A stretch of DNA of 64,000 nucleotides from Patellaria atrata CBS 101060 (Eukaryota). Shown here piece after piece: positions 5,420 through 50,338 of the stretch. The translations under genes were made by a program, and so were the position numbers. The notes under the pieces were generated by a model. That model worked only from the letters and a program-made list of their open reading frames with translations. It was not told where the DNA came from and did not search any database. The stretch's first letter is position 1. Every line of letters begins with the position of its first letter. Location: assembly GCA_010093705.1 (NCBI GenBank), contig MU006117.1:77707-141706 (forward strand), in the 5' to 3' direction.

Positions 5420-7221
5420 ATGCCCACTATTGAAGAGCCAGCATCATCGCCAGGGGACGGCGTCTCGTCGCTTGAAGAAGATCTAGCTTACTATAAGTCG
5501 CAGTATGAGCAGTTGGAGTTAGAGCTACAAGAGTTTCAGGCTTCGAGTAGGGAGCTCGAAGCAGAACTAGAAAAAGACATCGAGGCGTCTGAGAAAAGAG
5601 AAAGGCAACTTCAAGAGAAAGTCGAAAATATAGGATTCGAAGTAGGAGAATGGAAGGTGAGTACCATATTTTATGCCGAATCTCCATTCTCAAGCACGTG
5701 GTAACTCTCGCGCCATAGACCAAATACAAGCAATCGAAGGCGGAAGCGAATGCGGCGCAAAACACACTACAAAAAGAAATAACAACGCTTCGCGATGCAA
5801 ACCGAACCCTCCAACTTAAATTAAGAGACATCGAAGTCGTCAACGATGATTTTGAGAGACAAGCACGGAATACCAGTTCTTCTCTGGAGGATCTGGAGTC
5901 GAAATACAACGTCTCGATCGAGCGAGGCGTAATTCTAGAAGAGGAAATCAAAGTCGGCGAGCAAGAGAGAGAAGGATTAAGAATCGAGACTCAACGTTTA
6001 CGGGATGAGCTATCAGATTTGAAAATTGAGTCGGAAATAATACAAGAGAAACTTCGGATCGCCGAAGCGACGATAGAAAGGCACCACGAACAGCGTACAC
6101 ATGCCCTAACAACAGAAGTTCGCCCAAGCTCACCCCTATCTGAAGCATCCACATCTGCAACAAATCTATCTTCACCTATAACATCAACTCCGCCATTATC
6201 CAAGTCAGGAAGTTCGACTATCACAGAAACACCTCCATCTCCTCCCCTCTCGGAAACTTCCGCTAATCCCAGAAAAGCCCCAGCAACGCCCATCCCAATG
6301 CGGAGAAAGCATTCCATCGCTCTCGACGCAAATATGACGCCGCGCGCCGGCCACACAGGCACAATACGAGGCCCACGGCACTCACGAGGACCATCCATAC
6401 CAGTCAGTGCAACTGGCAGAACAACGCCCTCCCTACCCCGTCCTAGAGCACCCGCATCAAGACCCAGTATCAACAAGGCCCAAGAAGGCGGTCTTCTGCG
6501 TTCAGGCTCACTCTATCAAATTCGTGGTCTAATAGGTAAGATGCAGAAGCTCGAAGAAAGAGTTCACTCCGCACGATCCAAGCTCCCAGCACCCACCAGT
6601 ACGCCCCCACGAGCCTCGCCAAGAAACGGAAGCGCACTAGGCCACCACATCCCTAATACAGTCACGGTACGCAGTAGTAGGAAGCGCGCAAGCGGCAGTA
6701 CCACCACATCTTCTATTCACGGCGGCGATAGTAGCGTCAGTCGTCTTTCCTTTGGCGTACCGGCTCCCGCACCCCTGGATAAGGGAGTTGGTTCCAGCAG
6801 ACCGAGCAGCAGAGCTAGCATGGCGAGTCAGAATACCTTTGCTCGGCCGAGCAGCAGGAGTAGCATGTCTGGCGCCCGCACACCGTTGGGTCATTATTCG
6901 TCGGCTTCTGTTTCGGAGCGAAGGCCAAGGTCGTCAATGAATGGGGCCTTGGCAGCTTCTCACGGCCATACAAACTCCATGAGCATTAGTGCTGCAAGCG
7001 GGACCAGCAGTAATGAAGATGGGGATGGTTTCAGGACACCTTACGCTAGGCGACCGAGCATGGTCAAGGATGGAACTGGCATCCCGACTCCAAGTGGGAT
7101 ACCTAGACGGCAGAGCGGTGGTGTGATAGGAAGAAGGACTAGCGCAGGAGTTATTCAGGAGAGCGATATGGGACCGCCGCAACGGGGGAGAAAGTTAAGT
7201 GAGGTGGGGGAGACGTACTAA
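5420..7221 (+). CDS. nudE: Nuclear distribution protein NudE/RO11 (dynein regulator); exons 5420-5656 and 5719-7221, ~579 aa
   Basis: Coiled-coil motif [38 protein letters not shown]...CATAG intron joins to [26 protein letters not shown]...[17 protein letters not shown]-terminal motif [29 protein letters not shown]. Confidence 0.95.
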
Positions 7222-8842: not shown

Positions 8843-10277
8843 TCATTTCTCCTCCCAACCTACCATTCCCTTAATGCTGGCCACTCCGTCTTCCATAACG
8901 CTCCTCGCTTTCCCACCTGCTCCTTCCACCGCTTCACTCACGTCCTCCCTCCCAACACCGACTCTATCAACGATTGCTTTACCTACCTCCCCCGCCTTCT
9001 CCCTCCCCGAATCCACACCCTTTGTAAGCGCATCGCCCATCTCTCCCGCCCTCTCCCTTCCCAGCCTCGCAATCTCTTCCGGACCCGGGAACCTCTTAAT
9101 GGCCCTCAAGACCAAATAATAGAACTGCACGACCATGACATGACTCCTCTCCTTGACGGCCATCGTGACACCATGACCTAAGAAGCCCTTCACAACTTCC
9201 GCGCCCAAGCCCCGATATACCGCGCCCACGCCCTCACGCTGAGCGACATCGAGCACCGAGGTGATAGGGTTCGACGACGCGCTTGACTTCTCAAAAATAG
9301 ACGTTACGGAGCTAGACCTGGAAGCTTGGGCTCTTGTCTTCGCAGCTGAAAAGGGGTACGTGATCGTTGAGGCGAGTGCTTTGCTAAGCGCGGCAACTAA
9401 GAAGGTGAGAGCGCCGGAGGGATTGCGGCCGGTGCGTTTGAAGATCTGCTGTAGGAAAGAGTGGAAAAGGAATGTGAGGGAGGGATTTAGGGTCAGTATT
9501 AGGGAGGCGGGATAGCCAGACCAGAAGCCCGGGAGGCCTTTCTCCGCGTGGATTCCTCTAATGATATCGCTAGTAGAAGGAGACTGTCTCCGTGAGGTTT
9601 TTTTGGGAGATTCAGAGGAGGGGAATAAGGTCGTATGGGTAGGGGTGGAGAAGTTGTTGTTTAGGGCTGCTGTTTGTGTCCGAGTAACGACGTTTTGGAT
9701 TGGGGTGGTGAGGAACTTGCAGAACGCGCCGGCGAGGACGCCAATTACAAGTTCATCTGTGACGTTTAGGCGTGGTTCATGGGTCCCTGCTGTTTTTGTC
9801 TTCTGTAGTTGTGCTTTTCTACTATTTCCTAGGAAGTCGTACGCAAGGAAGAAGAGGAAGCTGTCCACGACACTCTTTGCAGTATCTTGCCATACACCTT
9901 GGTAAAGTGCTCTCACTCCACCCTCTTCAAGATGAATTCTTCTAAACGCATCTACGATATCTCTGTATTCTTCTGGTTCTAGCTTCTTCTCGCTTGAATC
10001 CTTGGGTCTACTAGACCGTTGTTGCACCTGCAATCGCGTGATGACTAAATCTAGGGGGTACAGGAGAAGATGCGACACTGCCGTACCAACAGATCCTGAC
10101 ACTGCATGGCCGAGAGCTGGGAGCGCAGGACCGATGGGAGAGCGGGACGGCCGATTATCCTCTTGGACGCGATGATACAGCGTAAAGGCATCCTGAAAGA
10201 ATGTCTCGTCAATACGGAGTTTTAAGGAAGACGGTTGGAAATTAGCGTACTAACTGACTATTATAGGGGTTCGACAT
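8843..10277 (-). CDS. Mitochondrial carrier family protein, peroxisomal adenine nucleotide transporter (Ant1-like); exons 10277-10251 and 10192-8843, ~458 aa
   Basis: Carrier signatures YPLDLVITRLQ, TPIQNVVTRTQ and YPFSAAKTRAQ; GFWSGYPASLILTLNPSLTF; N-terminus MSNPYNSQL|DAFTLYH...GPALPALGHAVSG joined by a GTACGC...TTCAG intron. Confidence 0.88.
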
Positions 10278-10594: not shown

Positions 10595-13500
10595 TTACTG
10601 TACTACTTGTCCATCCGGACTTGTAACTTCCATCATTCGTAACCTGGACGGCGATTCCTCAACAACAGGAGCCTTGCTCCTGGAGGTTCTGCCTGTGATA
10701 TTTAACGCCGCTAAATTAGGTATCCCAGTTGGTAGAGACGGTACTTCAATAGCCCGTCGACGACCATGGTCATCATCATCATCATCATCCCTTTTCCCTT
10801 TATCCTCTTCTTTCTTTGCTTTTCCCTTCTCCTCCTGTTCATCGTCTTCTTGCACGAGGTCTGCGCCCGGCAATTCTATATTAGTGACACCCAGTGTTCT
10901 CTTGATATCGTCTAATAAGACCTCCATCGGACAAATGTACGCAAAACACGTCTTATCACACCATGCGAGCACATGCCCGCATACACGTCCTCGCTCATTA
11001 TCTACAACCCAGGCGCCAGAGTCACCGGGGACACCAAGACCCCCTGTGACGACAAAGCTCCTGGCAAAGGTACGACGACGATATATGCGCACCGCACTCA
11101 TCGCGGGGCCAACCACACCCGCTTTCAATCCCGATGTCCGACCAAAGCAATGAACGTCGAGATTTGCTAAGTCCTTCTGCGGAGCAAACTGCACTGGATA
11201 CTCATCCTGATCTGCTGGGTAATGGTGTCTGCAGACCGGGCTTTGGAGTTCTGGGGTAACTCGAGGACGGTGACTTCGGCGCAATAATCTGCCGCCTGCG
11301 ATAAGATTATATGGTTGTAGACGCTTCGGATCTAGTTTCAGTAATGCCCAGTCTATTTCGTGTTTCACTCCATCTCGCGTCCAGCGACGGATACCAGAAG
11401 ATGCGTGAAGATGGCCGAGTGTATTGGAAGTAAGGTGATCCTCATCCCTGTCATCCTGATCTGGAAAGAAATCGTCCTCTACATCATCCAAAGCTGGTTG
11501 CGTAACGATAATGTGGTCGCACTCCCCTGGGGTGTAGCCTGGGATGTCACCTTCCGTGGGAGCTTCCGAGGGGTCGTCACTGTCAGAGTCGTAATCGTCG
11601 GAAAGGTCGACTAGTGAAGATTGGTCGTCATCATCGAATACATGTTCTTCCCCGTCCCACTCGTCCTCTTCATCTGAGATAAAATATGCTTCATCCTCAA
11701 GCTGTAAGCTTGAGCGTGATCCCATTGCCGCGAAATATGGATCAGCATGCTGACGTGCACTCGACCTGGTTATTTCTTCATCGTATTCTTCTTCATCCTC
11801 ACTAGGTGGATCCAACAAATGGTGTACTGTCATTCCATATGGTTCACCGTCAACAAGTATCACACCGCCATAAGACACTGGTGGAAGATGCTTTTCGTCT
11901 ATGTATGCGCCAATAGATGCTCCACACAATGGTCTTTCCTGATAGTATGGATTCAGAGGTCTCAGATCACCCCCTTGTGTGTTGAAGTTTTCCATAGACC
12001 GATGTGGTGGGGGTACCCTTCTCCTACGTTGAGGAAGCTTTGATCTACAAACCTTCCCTTTTCGAACCTTGAGATCAAAGGTTTTCGTGTCATAATTGAG
12101 TTTTTTGTTCAATGCTGCTCTGACCTTCTGTGTAGAAGTGCAAGTAACGAAGATAGTCGGTCGTGCTATAGCTGGTGTTTCGCCCACAGACAGCAGATCT
12201 ATGCTGACAGTTTCAGGAGATGTCTTTAAGGTACGCTCTAAAATCCGCTCAATGTTCGGTAGTAAAGTCTGATGCCACACATCTAAGATAGTCCGAGATA
12301 GTTTGACCGGCTGAATCCGTAGTTTTGATCGTGGACGGATGGTTTCGGATTTGATCTCAATGTGTGACACTTCAGAGACTATTCTACTTTCAATTTGCAG
12401 TGGTTCATCCATAAAATTTTGCTGTGAAGTAAGTTCCGGTGTTTGGGCTTCCGAGCTTCTGCGTAGAAGTCTAGCTCGATAATGTCTCTGGATCAGTACG
12501 ATTTTACGCTTGTATTCAGTAAAGGAAACCCTGCTACTCCTCGAACGCCATGCCTTCTGGATCCTTTCGGCAGCATCTGCTACTTTCTCTTTGTAAAGAG
12601 ACGATAGATCAACTTCCTCTTCGATTGTCTTTACACTGGGGCTTTCATGACCAGAGTGATGCCGTAGGCTGGGGAAGCGATGGTGACGACTTTGTTCATG
12701 GCTCGGGTCTCCGCTCCCATCACGCTTGATTTTAGGCTCTGATTGTGGTTTACCTATTGAATGTAAGGATTTACTCAGTTGGAGTGACGATCTCGTCTTT
12801 AAATATTTACTTACTTGATTGCAATGGAGACGGTCCTGGCTGCTGGCCAGAACGGCGAACTGGGCTTGCCTTCCATGAAGCTGTTGATTCAATTTTCCGC
12901 GCCGACAACGGAGTAGTTGCCCAAGGGTCAGTGAAGGGTATTACTCCGACGCTTTCCGTACTCTCATCTAACATGCAGCATTTCTGTAATCTGAGTATTG
13001 CTTGGTTGTACAGTTGATTGGATGGGTGATCTGCCTTACGGTCTGCAGCCGCAAGACAGTCCTGAACCACTTTCATGTATACAGTACCACATTTTGACGC
13101 CAGTTTCTTTACCCAGGTGTTTTCCACTCTAGCGCGGAAGTTCGCAAGGGTGTACTTAGGTTTGAAAATCTCAATGAGCGGGACCCACAGACCGATTTCG
13201 AGGAGGATAAGTCCCAAAGAATACATGTCGAATCGTGAATTGTAGGAACCACTTCGTGTCCCTTTTGCTCGAGGATCTTCGGGATGCCGATAGATGTTTT
13301 GGGTTTCCGGTGCGGCCGAAGCAGTGTTGAATTCAGAGAAGAGGTCTGGAGAAGAAATGAAAGGTGACCTGACCTCGAAATCTGGATCACGAGGCGCACC
13401 TGGAGACCTTGGAGTCGATCGCTTCTTCTTAAAGAGAATTATATTGCTGCTGTTGACGTCCTGATGGGAGAATTCTTGGCTATGCAACTTGCTGAAAGAT

Positions 13501-14675
13501 ACTGTCAGATTCAGTGCTAAGCGGAACTTTTCTTCCAGAGCCGGAATAGGAGGCGCTATCGTGGAATTTGTAGCATTGAATGATTTCGAGGATGCTTGTA
13601 GGACGCTCAACAATGTGACCGGGCGCAACTCATCCGACCGTTTAGAAGCATCTGCAGGTCCATTATACACAAACTTTGGTAATTCATATACTAATCCGTA
13701 ACGAGGTTGCTTGGGATCTTCGAAGTAACCCGCGCAGTTCAAAGTTCCATATGTGTTATTTTCTGCACCCACTTTTGCACGGCTCAGGTAAATTAAAAGA
13801 GCATTGAGTCGTTTTTGATCGGGCTGAATAAGCGTCTCTCTGTAGACAGGATCGAAGTCGGCATACTCGACAAGGACAGGAGTAGTGATCTGTTTACTCC
13901 CGTCCGACTTCCAGGGGTTAGTGGAGGTATGTGACTGGCGCAAGCGTCCGAGGACTCGAGCAGATGATGGTGCTCCGACAGTCTCATAAGGAGGTGGCTC
14001 CTCTTCGGGCAAGTCAAGACTGAAAAGGTCGATTTTCGGAATTGGTTGGATATCCAAAGTCGAGTGACCAGTAGAGCTAGTGCTGGGATTAACAAGCGTT
14101 ATGTCGGATTCGCTGTACTCCCGATGGAAGAATATTGGCTTAGTAGGATTGACGGTAAGAGAAGGTTTCCGGCCAGGAGCAGGCTCCGATTTGGGTGAAT
14201 AGGGATTCTGGTTAAAACCACCCCTTTCTTTAGACAGACTGTAGAGTGTGTCGTTAGATGTAATCAATTGCTTTAACAAGTCCTCGTATCTTGAACGGTC
14301 CGCCGCTGACCAAGGTCGATCGTTGTCTGAAAAGGACGCAGCCTTTTCTGAAGCTGCTTTCCTTGATATCGATGGATCATCGGCGGATTGTATTCTTTCG
14401 GCTTCTTCGACAACTTCTTTGATCGTCTGCAAGACGCTGGTAACCGTCTTAGTCAGATGTGCCCGTTCAACAGACTCATCGATGTGGTTACTGCTATCAG
14501 TCCATGCCAATCCCCAGGCTACCAATCTATCTTTCTCGATGCGATACTTGCGATGCAATGCGCTCAGTTCCGGTACATCTTGAACTTTTGATTCCTTGGC
14601 GATGATGTCGCAAGATTGCTTCGCATCAGTATAGAGATTCGTAAGCCCACCAGGTCGTACACTATACGATTCCAT
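10595..14675 (-). CDS. HeLo (HET-s/LopB-type) domain + pseudokinase + IQ motifs + trypsin-like serine protease; exons 14675-12815 and 12753-10595, ~1339 aa
   Basis: The 622-aa and 765-aa ORFs are joined in frame by a 61-nt GTAAGT...AATAG intron. Motifs: RIEKDRLVAWG (HeLo); HQDVNSSNIILF, YRHPE and DMYSLGLILLEIGLW (kinase fold); IQKAWRSR and IQRHYRAR (IQ); GMTVHH, IDWALLKL, GRTSG and GDSGAWV (protease). Confidence 0.85.
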
Positions 14676-17600
14676 TGATCAATGACGACCCCAACAACGA
14701 CGAAAGGTGGTTTTACGATGGCGACAACAAAATTATATATTATTGTATGTTAGAATAAAAAAGGAGTATGTCTAGTTAGTAACAGAATCCGGGGAGGAAC
14801 TAGCAGGGACGGCAGGATAGATAATAGGGAAAGTTTGGGGGCTAAAATGAACGAACTCTTGGGGGCCAATTCCTGTTGCCTGGTGATGCGCGTCTGTAAG
14901 TACCGTAACCGAATGCCCACATGTCGCATGCGATGTGTGCGAGCAAGGGGGGGTGTGCGACAACTCTCTCGGTTCACACCTTTTTTAGGCGGTTGGAAGC
15001 CCCGTACTCCGTATAATCCCCTTCACTTGATCCAACTTCCCAGGGGCGGAGCAAACTCGTGTGCTGTCGGGGTCCAGCCAACCCGGTCAGCTTAAAACCA
15101 AAGCCTCAGGTTTCAGGCCGCTTACCCTTGTTCCCTTTGTGTTTCCTACCTCCCAAACTCTCCCTTTCATATAAATGAGGCTGTGCTGCCTGCAGCAAGC
15201 GACAACAAAACGTGTCTTTCCCCATTTTCCAGCTTCGGTGGTCGCGATATATGACGGTGTGTGACCTTGACGTCGCCTTCCAGAGATCTTTACCTATGAA
15301 ACCTCCGAGCGAATCGTGCATAAAGTACTTGTAAGGTACGGAATGTAACACATCGCGAGCACTTGGAGGTTTCTGTCCAGTGAAGAGTTTAATTTCTTGA
15401 GGTTATATCCAACATCAATACTTATGCCTGTGTCATTATCAGGCACGGTCAGATTTCATTCGTGGCTGAAGTTTCTATAGTAATAGTCCTCGTTGAATAC
15501 ATCCCATAATATCTTCATCCCAGCTAGTCAGCCTATCAACGTCATCTTCAATCTAATACCGGTGGATGGCCAAGTTTGTCCTTACATCTTGATATGTCTA
15601 GGCTCCAGAAAAATAACATTGGTTATCGTCATGTATGTTTTGGTCTGCTGATGTACGGGTACCCCTTTAACGTTAAAAGATCGTTACGCCTCACTGCTTC
15701 CAGGAAGATACGGATTGGTACGGCGGTGACACTTTATCAGCTAGGCCGACTTACAATACAGCTAGATGAGTCAATCTCTCCTTTGCAGTCACCTAAAGGA
15801 GTCCTATCAAGTTTATCAGGCGCAAGCAAAATATCGAGGATTTTGTTTTTAGCAATTCCAGTCTGCCATCAAAAATTCTATTCATGTCATTCTTGTAAAG
15901 GAGTATAAATCTCGGAAATGACTCATTTCAGTGTAATGATGCCTTCTACATCATGTTATTGTTGTCAATGTTCAAATGTCATCGTTGTTTCCCAGGATGC
16001 TATTTCTCCGATCTTCGCAAGTCTTCTAGTAGCCCATTGTTCTTATGGTCCTCTGCTTGCGGCTATATTGCATAGTTTCTGTATGAACCTTGGAAACCAA
16101 TACATCATGGAAACAAGAAAAGTTACCTAACAGACGATCTGAGGGTGTTGCAAGGCCAGAAAGTATGGACGATCTCCGCAGACCAACACAAGAGGGAGGC
16201 CAGTATAGCCCTGATTCTCTTTCCTCCAGACCACTTATCAGAACTGAAACGACAGAGCTGTATGTTAGTAGTACCCTCCCGGGGTCCATGAAGGCGATGG
16301 TACGGATCGGTATTGCTCGAGATTCACATAGAAATTCAACTGTTGAGTCGATTACAAAATACCGCTCGTTACGTCTTTTGGATTACAGAAACAATATCCA
16401 ACACGAACCAGTATAATCCGCCCAGAACTTGTTTAAGCAAGATAGATCATGTTCATGAAGTCGTATGCTACCCAATGGCTGCGACATGGCTCGCGTTTGC
16501 CTGGCTTGGTATGATTACGTATGTGCAATAGTACGACGGTCTTCTATTAGGCAAAGTCTCCTTCAGAGAACTATTGTGCGATGTGCAGAGCACGGTAATC
16601 ACACAGTTAAGCTTCTTGATTCCTCTCAATGTGCTTAGGAACAATAACTAAGCCCTTGACAATCGGAAAATTCAAATAATAATAGGTTGTTGACGGGGCG
16701 CATCCCTTGACAATGTTTGCTTGAGCAGTTCCATGGCGGATAGCATCCATCCGTACCATCAGTTAGTATTCTCCAAATCAAAATTCCATTACAAATCTAT
16801 AGGATAGGATAGAAGAAGCCGATAGTATCATAACAATGATAAGAATAGCAGTATTTGTGAGCGAGACGCCAGCGTGAATTATCGTTTTAGGTTGGCGCCG
16901 CGAAAACGATGGTGCGCAACGGCTTCCAGGGGGTTCCTTGAGCTCCGGCGATGACATACCCATGTGGCGGTGCTAGGTCGCGTTTATTCCGCCCTCATCT
17001 GCTCTGCGAACCATCTATCTAACAACAGCTCGCTCCTTCTACTAAGCATGAGGGCCTTGTAAAGCTTTAATATCCCGTAAGGCCGATTAATTCCTTGTTA
17101 CTATTTGTTGATATTCATCATTTAGGCAGCTCTGTGGGATGAAATCTATAATCATTCCTTCACCTCCTTCATCGCTTACCCTGTCACGGGCTCACAGCTT
17201 CTCCTACTATAAAAACGCCTCAGTTGGACAGCCTCCCAATTGACCGGATTATCTTGGCTCGAAGTCTTCAATCGAGACAAATATAAGGCTTTGCGAACTC
17301 CTACCATTGCGGCCCAGGGCAAATATATCTCAAAGCCCTTGCACCGCTCTGAACTAACATCGTAGTATCAGTTCCTCCAGCCCGTAAGATAAAACAAGGC
17401 ATTAAGTTCGTGAGGTAGCCTTTTCTTTGCTTTTACAAGGCTTATATCCTGTTAGGTTCGAATTACTGATGCATATACACCGCGTGTACGGTCCGGTCAC
17501 TGTACCATTATTAGGGCGGTTTTAACATTCAGTTGCTGTACAGTACATTGTGTTAAAATCCTTGCTTAAAGGAGAAATCTGGTGAGCTATGACAAGAATG

Positions 17601-46665: not shown

Positions 46666-49346
46666 TCACGAGCTGAGACTTAGTCTGTTCAATCGCCCTA
46701 ATGTTCCTTCTACCATGGCATTCTGCCTATCAAGAAGCTCCATGACGTGAGCTACTCTTGTTCTCCTAAGCTCAGATGGGATCTGGACGTCACCATTTTC
46801 CGAAACTCCTTCTGAAACTTCTTCTGAAACCCTCATCTGCCGCTTGAGCTCTTCCTTCAGTTGTTCAACCTCCCTAAAGCGTTGGCCCAAGACGGTCTTC
46901 TCCTGCTCTTGGGTACCGTTTCGGTTGTCGAGAGATACACCGAATTTTCGGCTCATTTCGTCGAGCTCCTCTCCCCACGCAATCTCTTTCTCACTGAGTT
47001 CCTTGCCACCAACACGTGCCAACTTCTCCTTGAATCGCTCGTACCGACTGGAGAGATTAGCTTGATTTTTGGTAGCCGCTTCGAGTCTGCTTTTGATCTT
47101 TTCATTCCCTACAACTCTCTCCTCAGAATTCGAAAATTCCTCGTTGTCTCCGGTAATCCCGTCAATTCGTGCCGCAAGCTCCCTGGACTTCTGGATTTGA
47201 GCGCGTAGTTCGTCCTGGAGTCTCTCACAGCGTCTGAATAAATCTGAAGCAGCGTGTCCAAGCGCCTCCGATTCGCGCGATACAATACCGTGCACTTCGC
47301 CAAAGTATCCTAGCGTGACCTCAGATAGTTTGACTTCCTCTTTGAGATACCTGCGGTGATTCCGATGAACACGAGATTCCAAAAACAGTGGTAGATCTGA
47401 AGGTTCCCAGAATGTTTGAGGTGGTTGATATATTGGACGAGGTTGTATTGGGGGTGCAAAGTTCAACTCCGGTTCATAATTGTTACCTTCCTCAAGGAGT
47501 AACTCGTCATATGAACCTTCTAGGACTGCAGCGTAGGGTTGACTATTGACTACCGTTAAGACGAAATATCCGATATCTGAGTCTTTAAGGGCGACGCAGG
47601 TAGCTATACCGGAGGAATGCGGATTTGGGCGGAGTTGCTCGCGAGTTAGTTGGATTGGTCTCTCGAATATCGTTTGACATCGCTCATAAACCGATCTAAA
47701 GCGAGATTTGATGTCTCCTTCCTGAGGAGCATCGAGCTCTACCCTTAATGCTTCCGCCCAGGAACCTACTGAGACCCAGAAGACTCCTGCTTCATCAGTT
47801 ATAAAAAATGATGCTGGGGAATGCACATCCGGTGTAAATGTGGGATGAGATTCCTCAAGTGATTCTAGGTCAGAGCGAAATCTCACAGTTTCGAATAATA
47901 TCAAAGATGGACTCAGCCTACTAATAATATATCTCTATATCACTGTTAGCTAAAGCGCTTTTATACCGTTGTCCATATTATACATACCGAGCTTGTTGGT
48001 AACCATTGAGCTTCGACCCCTTCTAGGTTCAAGAAGACTTGTAATTCCCCACTGTTAGTCAATAAAGAGACGATGTTTGCTTGGTTCACGTCTCGGTCAG
48101 CTGGCCCATGCTCTTCTCCGGGGTTATCGCTACCTAGTCCTGTTACGTAGATATCTGTGAATTCGTAATCGTAATCATCCGACAACAGGGGCTTCATGGG
48201 AAAAGGTCCCTGTAGCCTCGGAATGGCATTTACGGATGATGGACGGGAGAAGTACTGGACCTCTTCAAAACCTGGCATCTCCACAAAAACCGGTTCTTGA
48301 TCTTCTATGTCCTCTAACCAGCTTATCTGTTGTTCATATATTAGCTGGTCAGACTCCTGAGTCTCTCTATCATCTGAAGATGCAAATTCTTTGCTGGCAA
48401 TATCAAGTACGAGGGAGTGCAGATGCTGTGATGTCCAATACTGACTGCTCCACTGCCATCTGGAGGGAAGAAGAGGGCATAAAGCGTATACGTCCCCCCC
48501 GGTCATGTTAATCCAGAGGGTCATCGCCGCCCATGGGTTCTCTTCATATCGTTTCCCTGTCCCCCCGAAACAAGCAGAAGCTACTTCCATATCAACATGG
48601 TCGGCTGAGAAGCCATTACTAGTCCCATAAGACGAAGCAGAAACATCGTCTTCAGCGCTTGTAGCATTGGATAGCTTCTTCAAGTCTACCGCTAATGTCG
48701 GGTTGGAGAATGAAAACCGGTCATCCCTGTTCACTTCCCATAAACGTAGTGTAGCGTCTTCAGTAATTGTCACTAGGGCTCTCGAGGCAGTTTCACTCAT
48801 ATTTCCTAAGGGATGCCAAAGGACAGATACTAGGGACGACTCTTCGACGACATGTGTTGTAGGACCAAGATGAAAGGTCTTTAGCTTGAGTGGGCCCGTA
48901 ATGTCGGATGTAAGTAGTGAGGAATGCGGTAGGATCGCTAGATGGATCGTATTGGGCGTGAGAATAGCGAGGTAATCTTCTCCGGGAGAGATCACTAGTT
49001 GCGTAATTTGACCAGATGTGGGAGATTTTAGGATCTGTATCATTCAGCATTGAACTGAAGTTTTGGTTTTTAATGGCCTCAATACCTTATAGAACGCCTC
49101 AGGATCATCTTCGCTCTCTTTCACTTCCTTTAGCAATACTAGATCGGTCCACCTTATCTCATTATCCACTACTACGAATACCTCTGTACCCCGACGCGCA
49201 ATTATCCGGTGAGCTCCGCGATATTGGTTCGAGCTTTGTGGACCTCTGAATTGCTGTGAAGGTATCTTCCCTTTGGATGCAAATGCCTTGAAGCCAGGCG
49301 TTGGTCTACTGAGCCAATCTGGGGTATATGCGAGGACCTTAGGCAT
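46666..49346 (-). CDS. NUP82: Nucleoporin Nup82/Nup88 family; introns 49085-49035 and 47987-47935
   Basis: MPKVLAYTPDWLSRP...IARRGTEVFVVVDNEIRW; beta-propeller motifs (VLWHPLG, LVTITEDATLRLWE, GGDVYALCPLLP); C-terminal coiled coil (AASDLFRRCERLQDEL). Confidence 0.88.
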
Positions 49347-49556
49347 GGCGATATCTTTCCCTGCAGCGGTTTCGTTTACAAATATGATGTCTGCCTTGTG
49401 GAAGGGTTGATGGAGCAGTGTGCAGTTGAACATGCGAAGTGCCTGTGGTCATTCGACGTGAACCTTCAAACACCATGCACGGACCATATTCAAAAGCTGC
49501 GTACTGGACAAATCCAAAGCATGAATCTCAATCACGAAACACTCTCACCACACAGC

Positions 49557-50338
49557 ATGGGTATGATTCGAAGTACAGTGGACCGACTAGATAAGCCCAG
49601 CTCATATACTGCTAATAAGGTACGTTATCTCTTGGTTACTCATACTTAATAGTATCTAACACTGAGTCTCTACAGAAACGTAGGCAGAAGTTCAATCGCG
49701 AGAGAGCCGGTGGTGAAGAGGAGAAATCTCGAGAGGAATCGCCCATTGAAGATAAATTAAAAGACGCTACCACGCTCTATGTCGGGAATCTGTATGCTCA
49801 CCTCCCTAATGCACCCGGAGTTCGCCCTTTCCTAACCATCCACTGACGGTTGTTAGTTCGTTCTACACAACGGAGGAACAGATTCATGAGCTGTTTGCGA
49901 AGTGCGGTGAGATCAAACGGCTAGTCATGGGTCTTGACCGCTTTCAAAAGACACCTTGTGGATTCTGTTTTGTCGAATATTACACCCATCAAGACGCGCT
50001 GGATTGTATGAAGTACATTGGGGGCACGAAGTTGGACGAAAGAGTCATCAGAACTGACTTAGATGAGGGTTTTGTGGAGGGAAGGCAATATGGGTATGTG
50101 AAATCTCTCATTTTCACATTGCAGGAATCATGGGATCTTACCTGTTGGTTGTACTACGAGGCACGATTACCTTGGAAGGGCTACATGTTTGTTACCTTAG
50201 GGTGGAAGTCTGTGCTAATGGATCTATAGACGTGGCAAGTCTGGCGGTCAAGTCCGTGATGAGTACCGCGATGAATTTGACCCCGGACGTGGAGGTTATG
50301 GGAGAGCAGTAGAGGATGATTATAGCGAGCGCAGGTAG
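49557..50338 (+). CDS. CBC2: Nuclear cap-binding complex small subunit (CBP20); 4 exons
   Basis: [49 protein letters not shown]...[40 protein letters not shown]. Confidence 0.96.

Follow-up and report, generated by a model that had tools for sequence, protein, structure and literature searches.

In Aspergillus nidulans, SltB (AN6132) activates the transcription factor SltA for cation and alkali tolerance, and transcription of sltB is itself SltA-dependent (PMC4557415; PMC4985261). SltB is a protein of 1272 amino acids (aa) that combines a pseudokinase with a serine protease, is confined to the Pezizomycotina and always occurs together with SltA (PMC4557415). It cuts itself in cis near residue 692; the substitution Ser1142Ala stops both self-cleavage and SltA processing, the fragment 692-1272 is inactive alone, the N-terminal half being needed, and cleavage in trans is very weak (PMC4985261). 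All forms of SltB are found in the cytoplasm, and none gives a membrane signal. Under salt and alkali, cleavage is constitutive, and no inducing signal is known for the pathway in Aspergillus (PMC4985261). SltB is a ubiquitinated protein, and slt mutations act as suppressors of vps mutants. The domain limits of SltB used here are those of the text of PMC4985261, whose figures and supplement may bear on them. Here, we describe a gene in a stretch of 64,000 nucleotides (nt) of Patellaria atrata CBS 101060 (the window) that we believe, with a probability of roughly 0.9 for this explanation as a whole, to be the single sltB of this fungus and the orthologue of AN6132. An original prediction, made from the letters of this DNA, had presented it as a candidate calcium-gated proteolytic switch for cell death or signalling. 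Since this gene is already known as SltB, core mechanism included, that headline is not a discovery; the novelty lies in two IQ-like, possibly calmodulin-binding motifs that one fungal class has added beside the inferred cut site.

The gene consists of two long frames on the minus strand, to which all gene features below belong, joined across a 61-nt intron (12754-12814, GTAAGT...AG) to give 1339 aa plus a stop. The spliced translation, to which our residue numbers refer, is identical letter for letter to the public gene model P0001. Exon 1 (12815-14675) encodes aa 1-620 plus one base and holds a HeLo domain, a PPPY motif and the pseudokinase, and exon 2 (10595-12753) encodes aa 621-1339 and the stop and holds the IQ pair, a domain resembling the ATP-binding domain (ABD) of rice NAL1, the protease and an acidic tail. 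An in-frame TGA sits two codons 5' of the ATG, as had been noted, and the motifs named in the original prediction were all found where it placed them. One could argue that these are two separate genes fused merely by a faulty gene model, given that the intron rests on the sequence and the model and that short database entries with the C-terminal half alone exist. However, the HeLo domain, the kinase and both protease halves stand in a single stop-free frame in 51 of 80 related metagenome loci, which makes the fusion independent of gene models, the 1272-aa SltB is confirmed by complementary DNA (PMC4557415), and the short entries would mostly be metagenome or assembly gene calls that end at introns or contig ends. 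We give the two-gene reading virtually no credence; judged from these sequences, it is already refuted at the level of the family, and the single gene originally proposed stands.

The published SltB sequence (Fig. S2 of PMC4557415) matches the Patellaria protein over its whole length and in the same order, through PPPY, VEY, RPLCGAS, MTVHH, HEIDWAL and VPGDSGAW. The two proteins thus share the pairing of pseudokinase and serine protease, the catalytic Asp and Ser and the PPPY motif; they are also alike in being single copy (the protease half occurs once in the Patellaria genome), in their Pezizomycotina range and in having an SltA partner in the genome, and AGGCA sites lie upstream of both, although their number is not significant for the Patellaria gene alone. 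Of the eight residues altered in published sltB mutants, six are identical here (Y533, E801, H1085, F1183, S1199 and G1213), and T509 and I1024 differ. The SltA-like gene (L133; G000:C15:318500-323000) has a frame from locus position 623 on the plus strand that encodes 872 aa with C2H2 fingers, and its finger I carries a Lys at helix position 6 with a Trp 71 residues on, as do K431 and W502 of SltA (PMC4557415). Among the 44 zinc-finger loci examined (the 30 best of 105 matches and 14 chosen for long frames), six fingers have a Lys at +6, and only that of L133 has the SltA Trp spacing. Identified in this way by published residue spacing rather than by alignment, the L133 product is likely the substrate of the protease.

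Four AGGCA sites, the SltA/Ace1 consensus, lie at -202, -512, -750 and -766 from the ATG (14877-15445, with no strand assigned). We counted this pentamer in 39 orthologue upstream regions, namely those of the 80 loci with 1150 nt upstream once near-duplicates were left out, and found 197 copies against 106 expected, placing it first among 512 5-mers and above expectation in 35 of the 39; the mean per region was 5.1, compared with 2.6 in a far-upstream control. Because the loci are related, these counts do not amount to 39 independent tests. Several points weigh against the identification as sltB. The comparison with SltB was made by eye and not by a computed alignment, the four AGGCA sites of this gene compare with 2.05 expected (P 0.15) and are not significant alone, and the evidence for P. 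atrata consists of sequence and models, the experiments being those of A. nidulans. In addition, SltB lacks an equivalent of the IQ pair, so that regulation may differ in this fungus, and the orthologue in Podospora, Pa_7_4390, appears in a list of HeLo proteins and is up 2.58-fold in incompatibility (PMC3689799), so that a link to cell-death responses is possible.

By analogy with A. nidulans, we propose that the same steps would run in this fungus. The protein would be made as a zymogen, with its HeLo-pseudokinase half serving as a large pro-region required for a working protease. Self-cleavage in cis would take place within the linker, at about aa 750, a position offset from SltB residue ~692 because the conserved Trp at 722 in SltB lies at 780 here. 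The cut would free the HeLo-pseudokinase from the protease half; at this position the IQ pair would go with the former, and the NAL1-like ABD would stay with the latter. The protease would then cut the C2H2 factor SltA/Ace1 to its active form, which would drive cation, alkali and vacuolar genes and feed back on sltB through the AGGCA sites. In this model the HeLo domain would be a scaffold rather than a pore former. The original prediction had suggested Ssy5-like self-cleavage that releases the N-terminal module; this idea is right and was already published for SltB, where Ser1142Ala blocks it (PMC4985261). It had also raised signalling instead of pore formation as a possibility, which agrees with the output of SltB, the activation of SltA (PMC4985261).

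An AlphaFold2 model of aa 760-1250 (predicted local distance difference test, pLDDT, 86; alignment of 93 sequences) indicates what the released protease half may look like. Its best structural matches were all rice NAL1 (PDB 8PN2 and 7Y77; PMC12012508), with a Foldseek E of 4e-9 and a Z of 19.2 over 293 aligned residues (root-mean-square deviation 4.2), model positions 14-491 superposing on NAL1 90-446 at a sequence identity of 11-15%. Alpha-lytic-type proteases rank next (Z 18.8) and span model positions 134-491 alone. The predicted fold of aa 773-1250 thus covers the NAL1 ABD plus the protease domain. On this superposition, the predicted alpha/beta domain at aa 764-860 (12035-12325) would equal the NAL1 domain described as ATP-binding, which also makes trimer contacts (PMC12012508), and aa 893-1250 (10865-11938) would form a chymotrypsin-fold serine protease of the alpha-lytic/NAL1 type; unlike NAL1, the Patellaria protein is fused to a HeLo-pseudokinase and has a long acidic insert. 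At the level of sequence, Trypsin_2 fell under the Pfam cut-off on exon 2 (E 0.16), no Pfam protease match was obtained at E 0.05 in any of 20 orthologues scanned, and searches against solved structures returned weak kinase matches and no protease relative.

The predicted triad comprises His932 (11819-11821), our inferred catalytic His, Asp1088 (11351-11353) and Ser1199 (11018-11020), which correspond to His874, Asp1036 and Ser1142 of SltB. His931, His932, Asp1088 and Ser1199 are invariant in 93/93 rows of alignment A1, whose rows were selected to leave out models that end before the serine. In unselected sets, the three triad motifs were present together in 106 of 120 top-ranking Dothideomycete-biased matches and in all 120 Sordariomycete-biased matches, and 9 of the 14 Dothideomycete-biased models lacking a triad motif end where SltB has its intron. 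The intact serine protease of the original prediction is borne out by the modelled fold and the triad, and the conservation of the triad across orthologues held when checked. The intron of SltB lies just before GDSG, whereas that of the Patellaria gene lies between the kinase and the IQ region. An intron directly before the catalytic-Ser GDSG occurs in many orthologues (for example, L025, L032, L047 and L088), and alternative donors that remove the Ser have been reported for it (PMC4557415); the Patellaria gene has no intron at this place.

The catalytic His of SltB was first proposed to be His925/939 and later His1008/1033, the latter from a model of residues 900-1192 (PMC4557415; PMC4985261), and H1033A gives a partial loss of function (PMC4985261). 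His874 of SltB falls outside that model. Its equivalent here, His932, is kept in 93/93 rows of the alignment, compared with 91 for the equivalent of His1008 and 85 for that of His1033. A catalytic His at a strand-helix position is the chymotrypsin pattern, and His932 stands at such a position in the predicted fold. By its position in the predicted fold and its conservation, His874 would be the better candidate for the catalytic His of SltB.

Between the His and the Asp lies an acidic insert modelled at low confidence (aa 937-1035; 11510-11806), with a median length of 103-120 aa and 30% D/E in the family; a motif of the [RL]S[SMG]A type is conserved within it (aa 950-953). In all, flexible loops flanking the His-bearing strands hold two motifs of the RS[MSG]A type (aa 872-874 and 950-953; listed at window positions 11993-12001 and in the 11818-11806 region). 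They are kept in 109 and 113 of 117 Sordariomycete-biased matches, where 11 and 1.9 would be expected, and they may be kinase or secondary cleavage sites. We considered RS[MS]A-type motifs (aa 872 and 950) as the main self-cut and dropped them, since the cut in SltB falls near 692, before the ABD-like domain begins, and SltB does not have the first motif. Likewise, aa 764-860 as a removable pro-domain is rejected by the published SltB fragment sizes. The 'pro-domain-like segment' of the original prediction therefore does not hold, as the A. nidulans data keep the segment on the protease and place the cut upstream.

The likeness to NAL1 raises the idea that the freed ABD-protease half forms a trimer or hexamer, perhaps ATP-bound, and that assembly governs activity and substrate access. 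Such a caged oligomer would be compatible with the identification as SltB. It would fit with NAL1 supplying all of the best structural matches (Foldseek E 4e-9, Z 19.2), with the trimers that NAL1 forms through ABD-protease contacts and the hexamer it needs for a correct triad (PMC12012508), and with SltB fragment 692-1272 being exactly ABD plus protease. However, at 11-15% identity the correspondence is one of overall fold, SltB 692-1272 is inactive by itself and cleaves very weakly in trans (PMC4985261), and the long acidic insert follows the catalytic His in the loop of the NAL1 stacking contact, where it may block stacking. We regard oligomerisation as a tentative proposal, more doubtful than probable.

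A functional analogue is Ssy5 of Saccharomyces cerevisiae (peptidase S64; PMC6761765), likewise a cytosolic alpha-lytic-type signalling protease and a self-cleaved zymogen with a large N-terminal part, which activates a zinc-finger factor by cutting it. With an aromatic residue at aa 1218, the S1 pocket here may be shallow, in keeping with the preference of Ssy5 for short P1 residues. The two differ in that Ssy5 has another pro-region, that the N-terminal half of SltB is required and not merely inhibitory, and that no inducing signal is known for SltB. PF08192 (Ssy5) gave no match at E 0.05 in 20/20 scanned orthologues and none in a search of the genome, run without a positive control; among Atlas neighbours it is found on 10% of members. 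Ssy5 is thus a working analogue rather than a demonstrated member of the same family.

In the N-terminal half, the HeLo-type helical domain occupies aa 10-155 (14211-14648). As originally proposed, it is a Pfam match above cut-off (PF14479; 29.2 bits against 23.2, E 9.6e-7, on exon 1), as is the kinase-like DUF7580, and the first match in the Atlas was HeLo (0.91). An AlphaFold2 model of aa 1-582 (pLDDT 82; alignment of 91 sequences) predicts a helical bundle and a kinase fold. Kinase matches filled both lists of the fold searches, which therefore bear on the kinase part; this part reached Z 16.6-19.7 with many kinases and pseudokinases, including the rat MLKL pseudokinase at 17.4, MLKL not being specially favoured. 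The pseudokinase (aa 208-572; 12960-14054) lacks the VAIK Lys, the HRD Arg and the DFG motif. The absence of the VAIK Lys and of DFG agrees with the original prediction, but the Asp of the catalytic-loop motif HQDVNSSN, which it had pointed to as retained, is not kept across the family: it is present here, is Asn in 102 of 120 Sordariomycete-biased matches and is Asn also in SltB (Fig. S2 of PMC4557415).

At the start of the kinase N-lobe is the PPPY motif (aa 227-230; 13986-13997), which is also found in SltB at residues 283-286 (Fig. S2 of PMC4557415). PPxY occurs in 57 of 74 long representatives compared with 4.3 in shuffles; it is absent from the Sordariomycete-biased set (0/120) and lost in a 12-tip Leotiomycete-Sordariomycete clade of a FastTree tree of 76 sequences. 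PPxY is a possible ligand of WW domains of the Rsp5/NEDD4 type. The motif here is, by its sequence, a candidate WW-domain ligand. Two relatives have further Pfam matches, a PX domain between HeLo and kinase in P0144 from Lasallia (aa 226-312) and an FRB domain after the kinase in P0217 (aa 592-633), which may be lineage add-ons or model errors.

A HeLo bundle followed by a dead kinase is also the layout of MLKL (PMC12881547) and of fungal HeLo/HELL-pseudokinases such as PskA (AN7985) and the Podospora HeLo-Pkc-like genes, and a HeLo domain by Pfam is shared with HET-S of Podospora anserina. The gene could therefore encode a self-contained death module of the MLKL kind, in which the protease frees the HeLo-pseudokinase to oligomerise and permeabilise membranes. 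Indeed, self-cleavage of SltB does release this half (PMC4985261), Pa_7_4390 is induced in incompatibility, although its 2.58-fold change is the lowest of seven induced HeLo genes (PMC3689799), and the first helix, being basic and amphipathic, might still touch membranes. However, a hydrophobic first helix is called key for HeLo toxicity (PMC10197012; PMC12881547). Here the first HeLo helix is polar or basic with a hydropathy of 0.14, compared with 1.5-2.1 in three HeLo-kinase paralogues of the same genome, and the medians of orthologues are -0.33 (n=115) and -0.66 (n=103), which confirms that the hydrophobic pore helix is absent. Furthermore, the A. nidulans fragment is released in all tested conditions, is cytoplasmic and has no membrane signal, and viable strains with SltB aa 1-477 only behave as nulls (PMC4985261). 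Finally, the gene is single copy, the ratio of nonsynonymous to synonymous substitution (dN/dS) is at most 0.08 in the HeLo domain, and five P. nodorum variants show 1-8 differences in 1411 residues. Given that SltB cleavage is constitutive, that both fragments are cytoplasmic and that the output is SltA activation (PMC4985261), cell death as the output put forward originally is unlikely; a membrane-permeabilising module of this sort is very improbable here and already largely refuted for the orthologue.

Compared with MLKL and the fungal HeLo/HELL-pseudokinases, the Patellaria protein has a fused protease, no hydrophobic first helix and slow evolution, and deletion of pskA gives no slt phenotype (PMC4557415). 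Compared with HET-S, it lacks the hydrophobic first helix and any prion-forming domain match in Pfam scans, and the known output of its SltB orthologue is transcription-factor activation. No amyloid motif or NOD-like receptor (NLR) partner was seen among the Pfam matches, no dedicated amyloid-motif search being made, and the neighbours are a carrier and NudE. Other HeLo loci of the genome are L003, L004, L005 and L007, and also L006, L010, L011 and L014. The first four encode HeLo-pseudokinases without a protease, the three checked having a hydrophobic first helix; as MLKL-like death effectors, these four are more promising than the gene described here.

The two IQ-like motifs lie at aa 681-696 (12527-12574) and, 23 residues past the first, at aa 705-719 (12458-12502). 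They were predicted as two IQ motifs, and they are indeed in place and beyond chance, as 20,000 shuffles of the 191-aa linker gave two IQxx[WFY][RK] motifs in 0.01% of cases. In contrast, their match on exon 2 (15.6 bits) is under the Pfam cut-off of 20.3 (PF00612), and among the 20 orthologues scanned five had an IQ or IQCJ match, all sub-cut-off with a best of 19.5, and the rest none. The canonical Gly of IQxxxRGxxxR is missing in the 15 examples printed, whereas the proteins do retain a conserved IQxx[WY]R core. IQ-like motifs occur in 105/105 scored Dothideomycete-biased matches (15 of the 120 were unscorable), with two in 85, and in 0/119 scored Sordariomycete-biased matches. In the tree, the 22 tips with IQ motifs all belong to a single 27-tip Dothideomycete clade with a support of 1.0, and within these proteins the motifs are kept inside the most variable region, the linker. 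Their distribution does not sustain the calmodulin control originally suggested as a general feature of the family: motifs missing in other classes are not required for the core mechanism, and calmodulin control is, judging by sequence, plausible at most as a class-specific add-on. We infer that Dothideomycetes added the IQ pair, which may bind calmodulin or a related light chain.

This add-on might make SltB calcium-gated: calmodulin on the IQ pair, which stands 30-65 residues before the self-cleavage zone, would control cleavage, fragment association or SltA processing. That would add to, and not replace, the identification as SltB. The presence of the motifs in every scored Dothideomycete-biased match, in a single clade and inside otherwise variable sequence, speaks in favour of this reading. 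The calcium phenotypes of slt mutants, which are rescued by calcium and with halA become calcium auxotrophs (PMC4557415), make calmodulin control plausible. Against this stand the sub-cut-off Pfam scores and the missing Gly. IQ motifs also often bind calmodulin without calcium, which counts against gating by calcium. Finally, SltB cleavage is constitutive in A. nidulans (PMC4985261). Calcium gating is a possibility that we would put forward only with reserve.

Named relatives belong to what we take to be Dothideomycetes, Sordariomycetes, Leotiomycetes, Eurotiomycetes, Lecanoromycetes and smaller classes. Orthologues annotated by their HeLo or kinase domain alone are thus as widespread, across the classes of the Pezizomycotina, as had been guessed. 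In the tree, sequences cluster according to fungal class, the pattern of a single gene passed on by vertical descent. Across 12 unsaturated, non-independent pairs from 27 loci, dN/dS is 0-0.12 outside the linker and 0.05-0.26 within it; purifying selection on the family is strong. The order of neighbouring genes is not kept: the NudE gene of the window (5719-7221, plus strand) adjoins 1/80 related loci, and the mitochondrial-carrier-family gene (8843-10249, minus strand) adjoins none, both neighbours being named by Pfam. Several frames at window positions 46669-50226 match DNA beside an sltB orthologue in two of the 80 loci (L095 and L096).

The HeLo match itself is already found in public annotations and in PMC3689799. 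In the available texts of PMC4557415, PMC4985261 and PMC11011638, 'HeLo' and 'calmodulin' each occur 0 times, as do NAL1, PPxY and His873/874 in those of the first two. Among the papers listed by our literature search, whose coverage leaves out subscription journals and whose listing was in one case 40 of 73 papers, none linked SltB to HeLo, MLKL, NAL1 or IQ, and a lookup by locus tag found Pa_7_4390 but not six other tags, including NCU07513. A speculative picture, which we hold to be rather unlikely in its entirety, is that SltB is a HeLo-pseudokinase of MLKL architecture, once a death effector and now recruited as the pro-region of a NAL1-like protease, to which a calmodulin-binding IQ pair in Dothideomycetes gives direct calcium control. 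The HeLo domain, the PPxY ligase motif, the NAL1-like ABD and His874 are candidates that make open questions on SltB testable by point mutants. Calmodulin binding by the IQ pair, if real, would provide a large class of fungi with a direct calcium input to the Slt/Ace1 pathway, and if the protein is calcium-gated, a pathway that is constitutive in Aspergillus would be directly calcium-regulated in Dothideomycetes.

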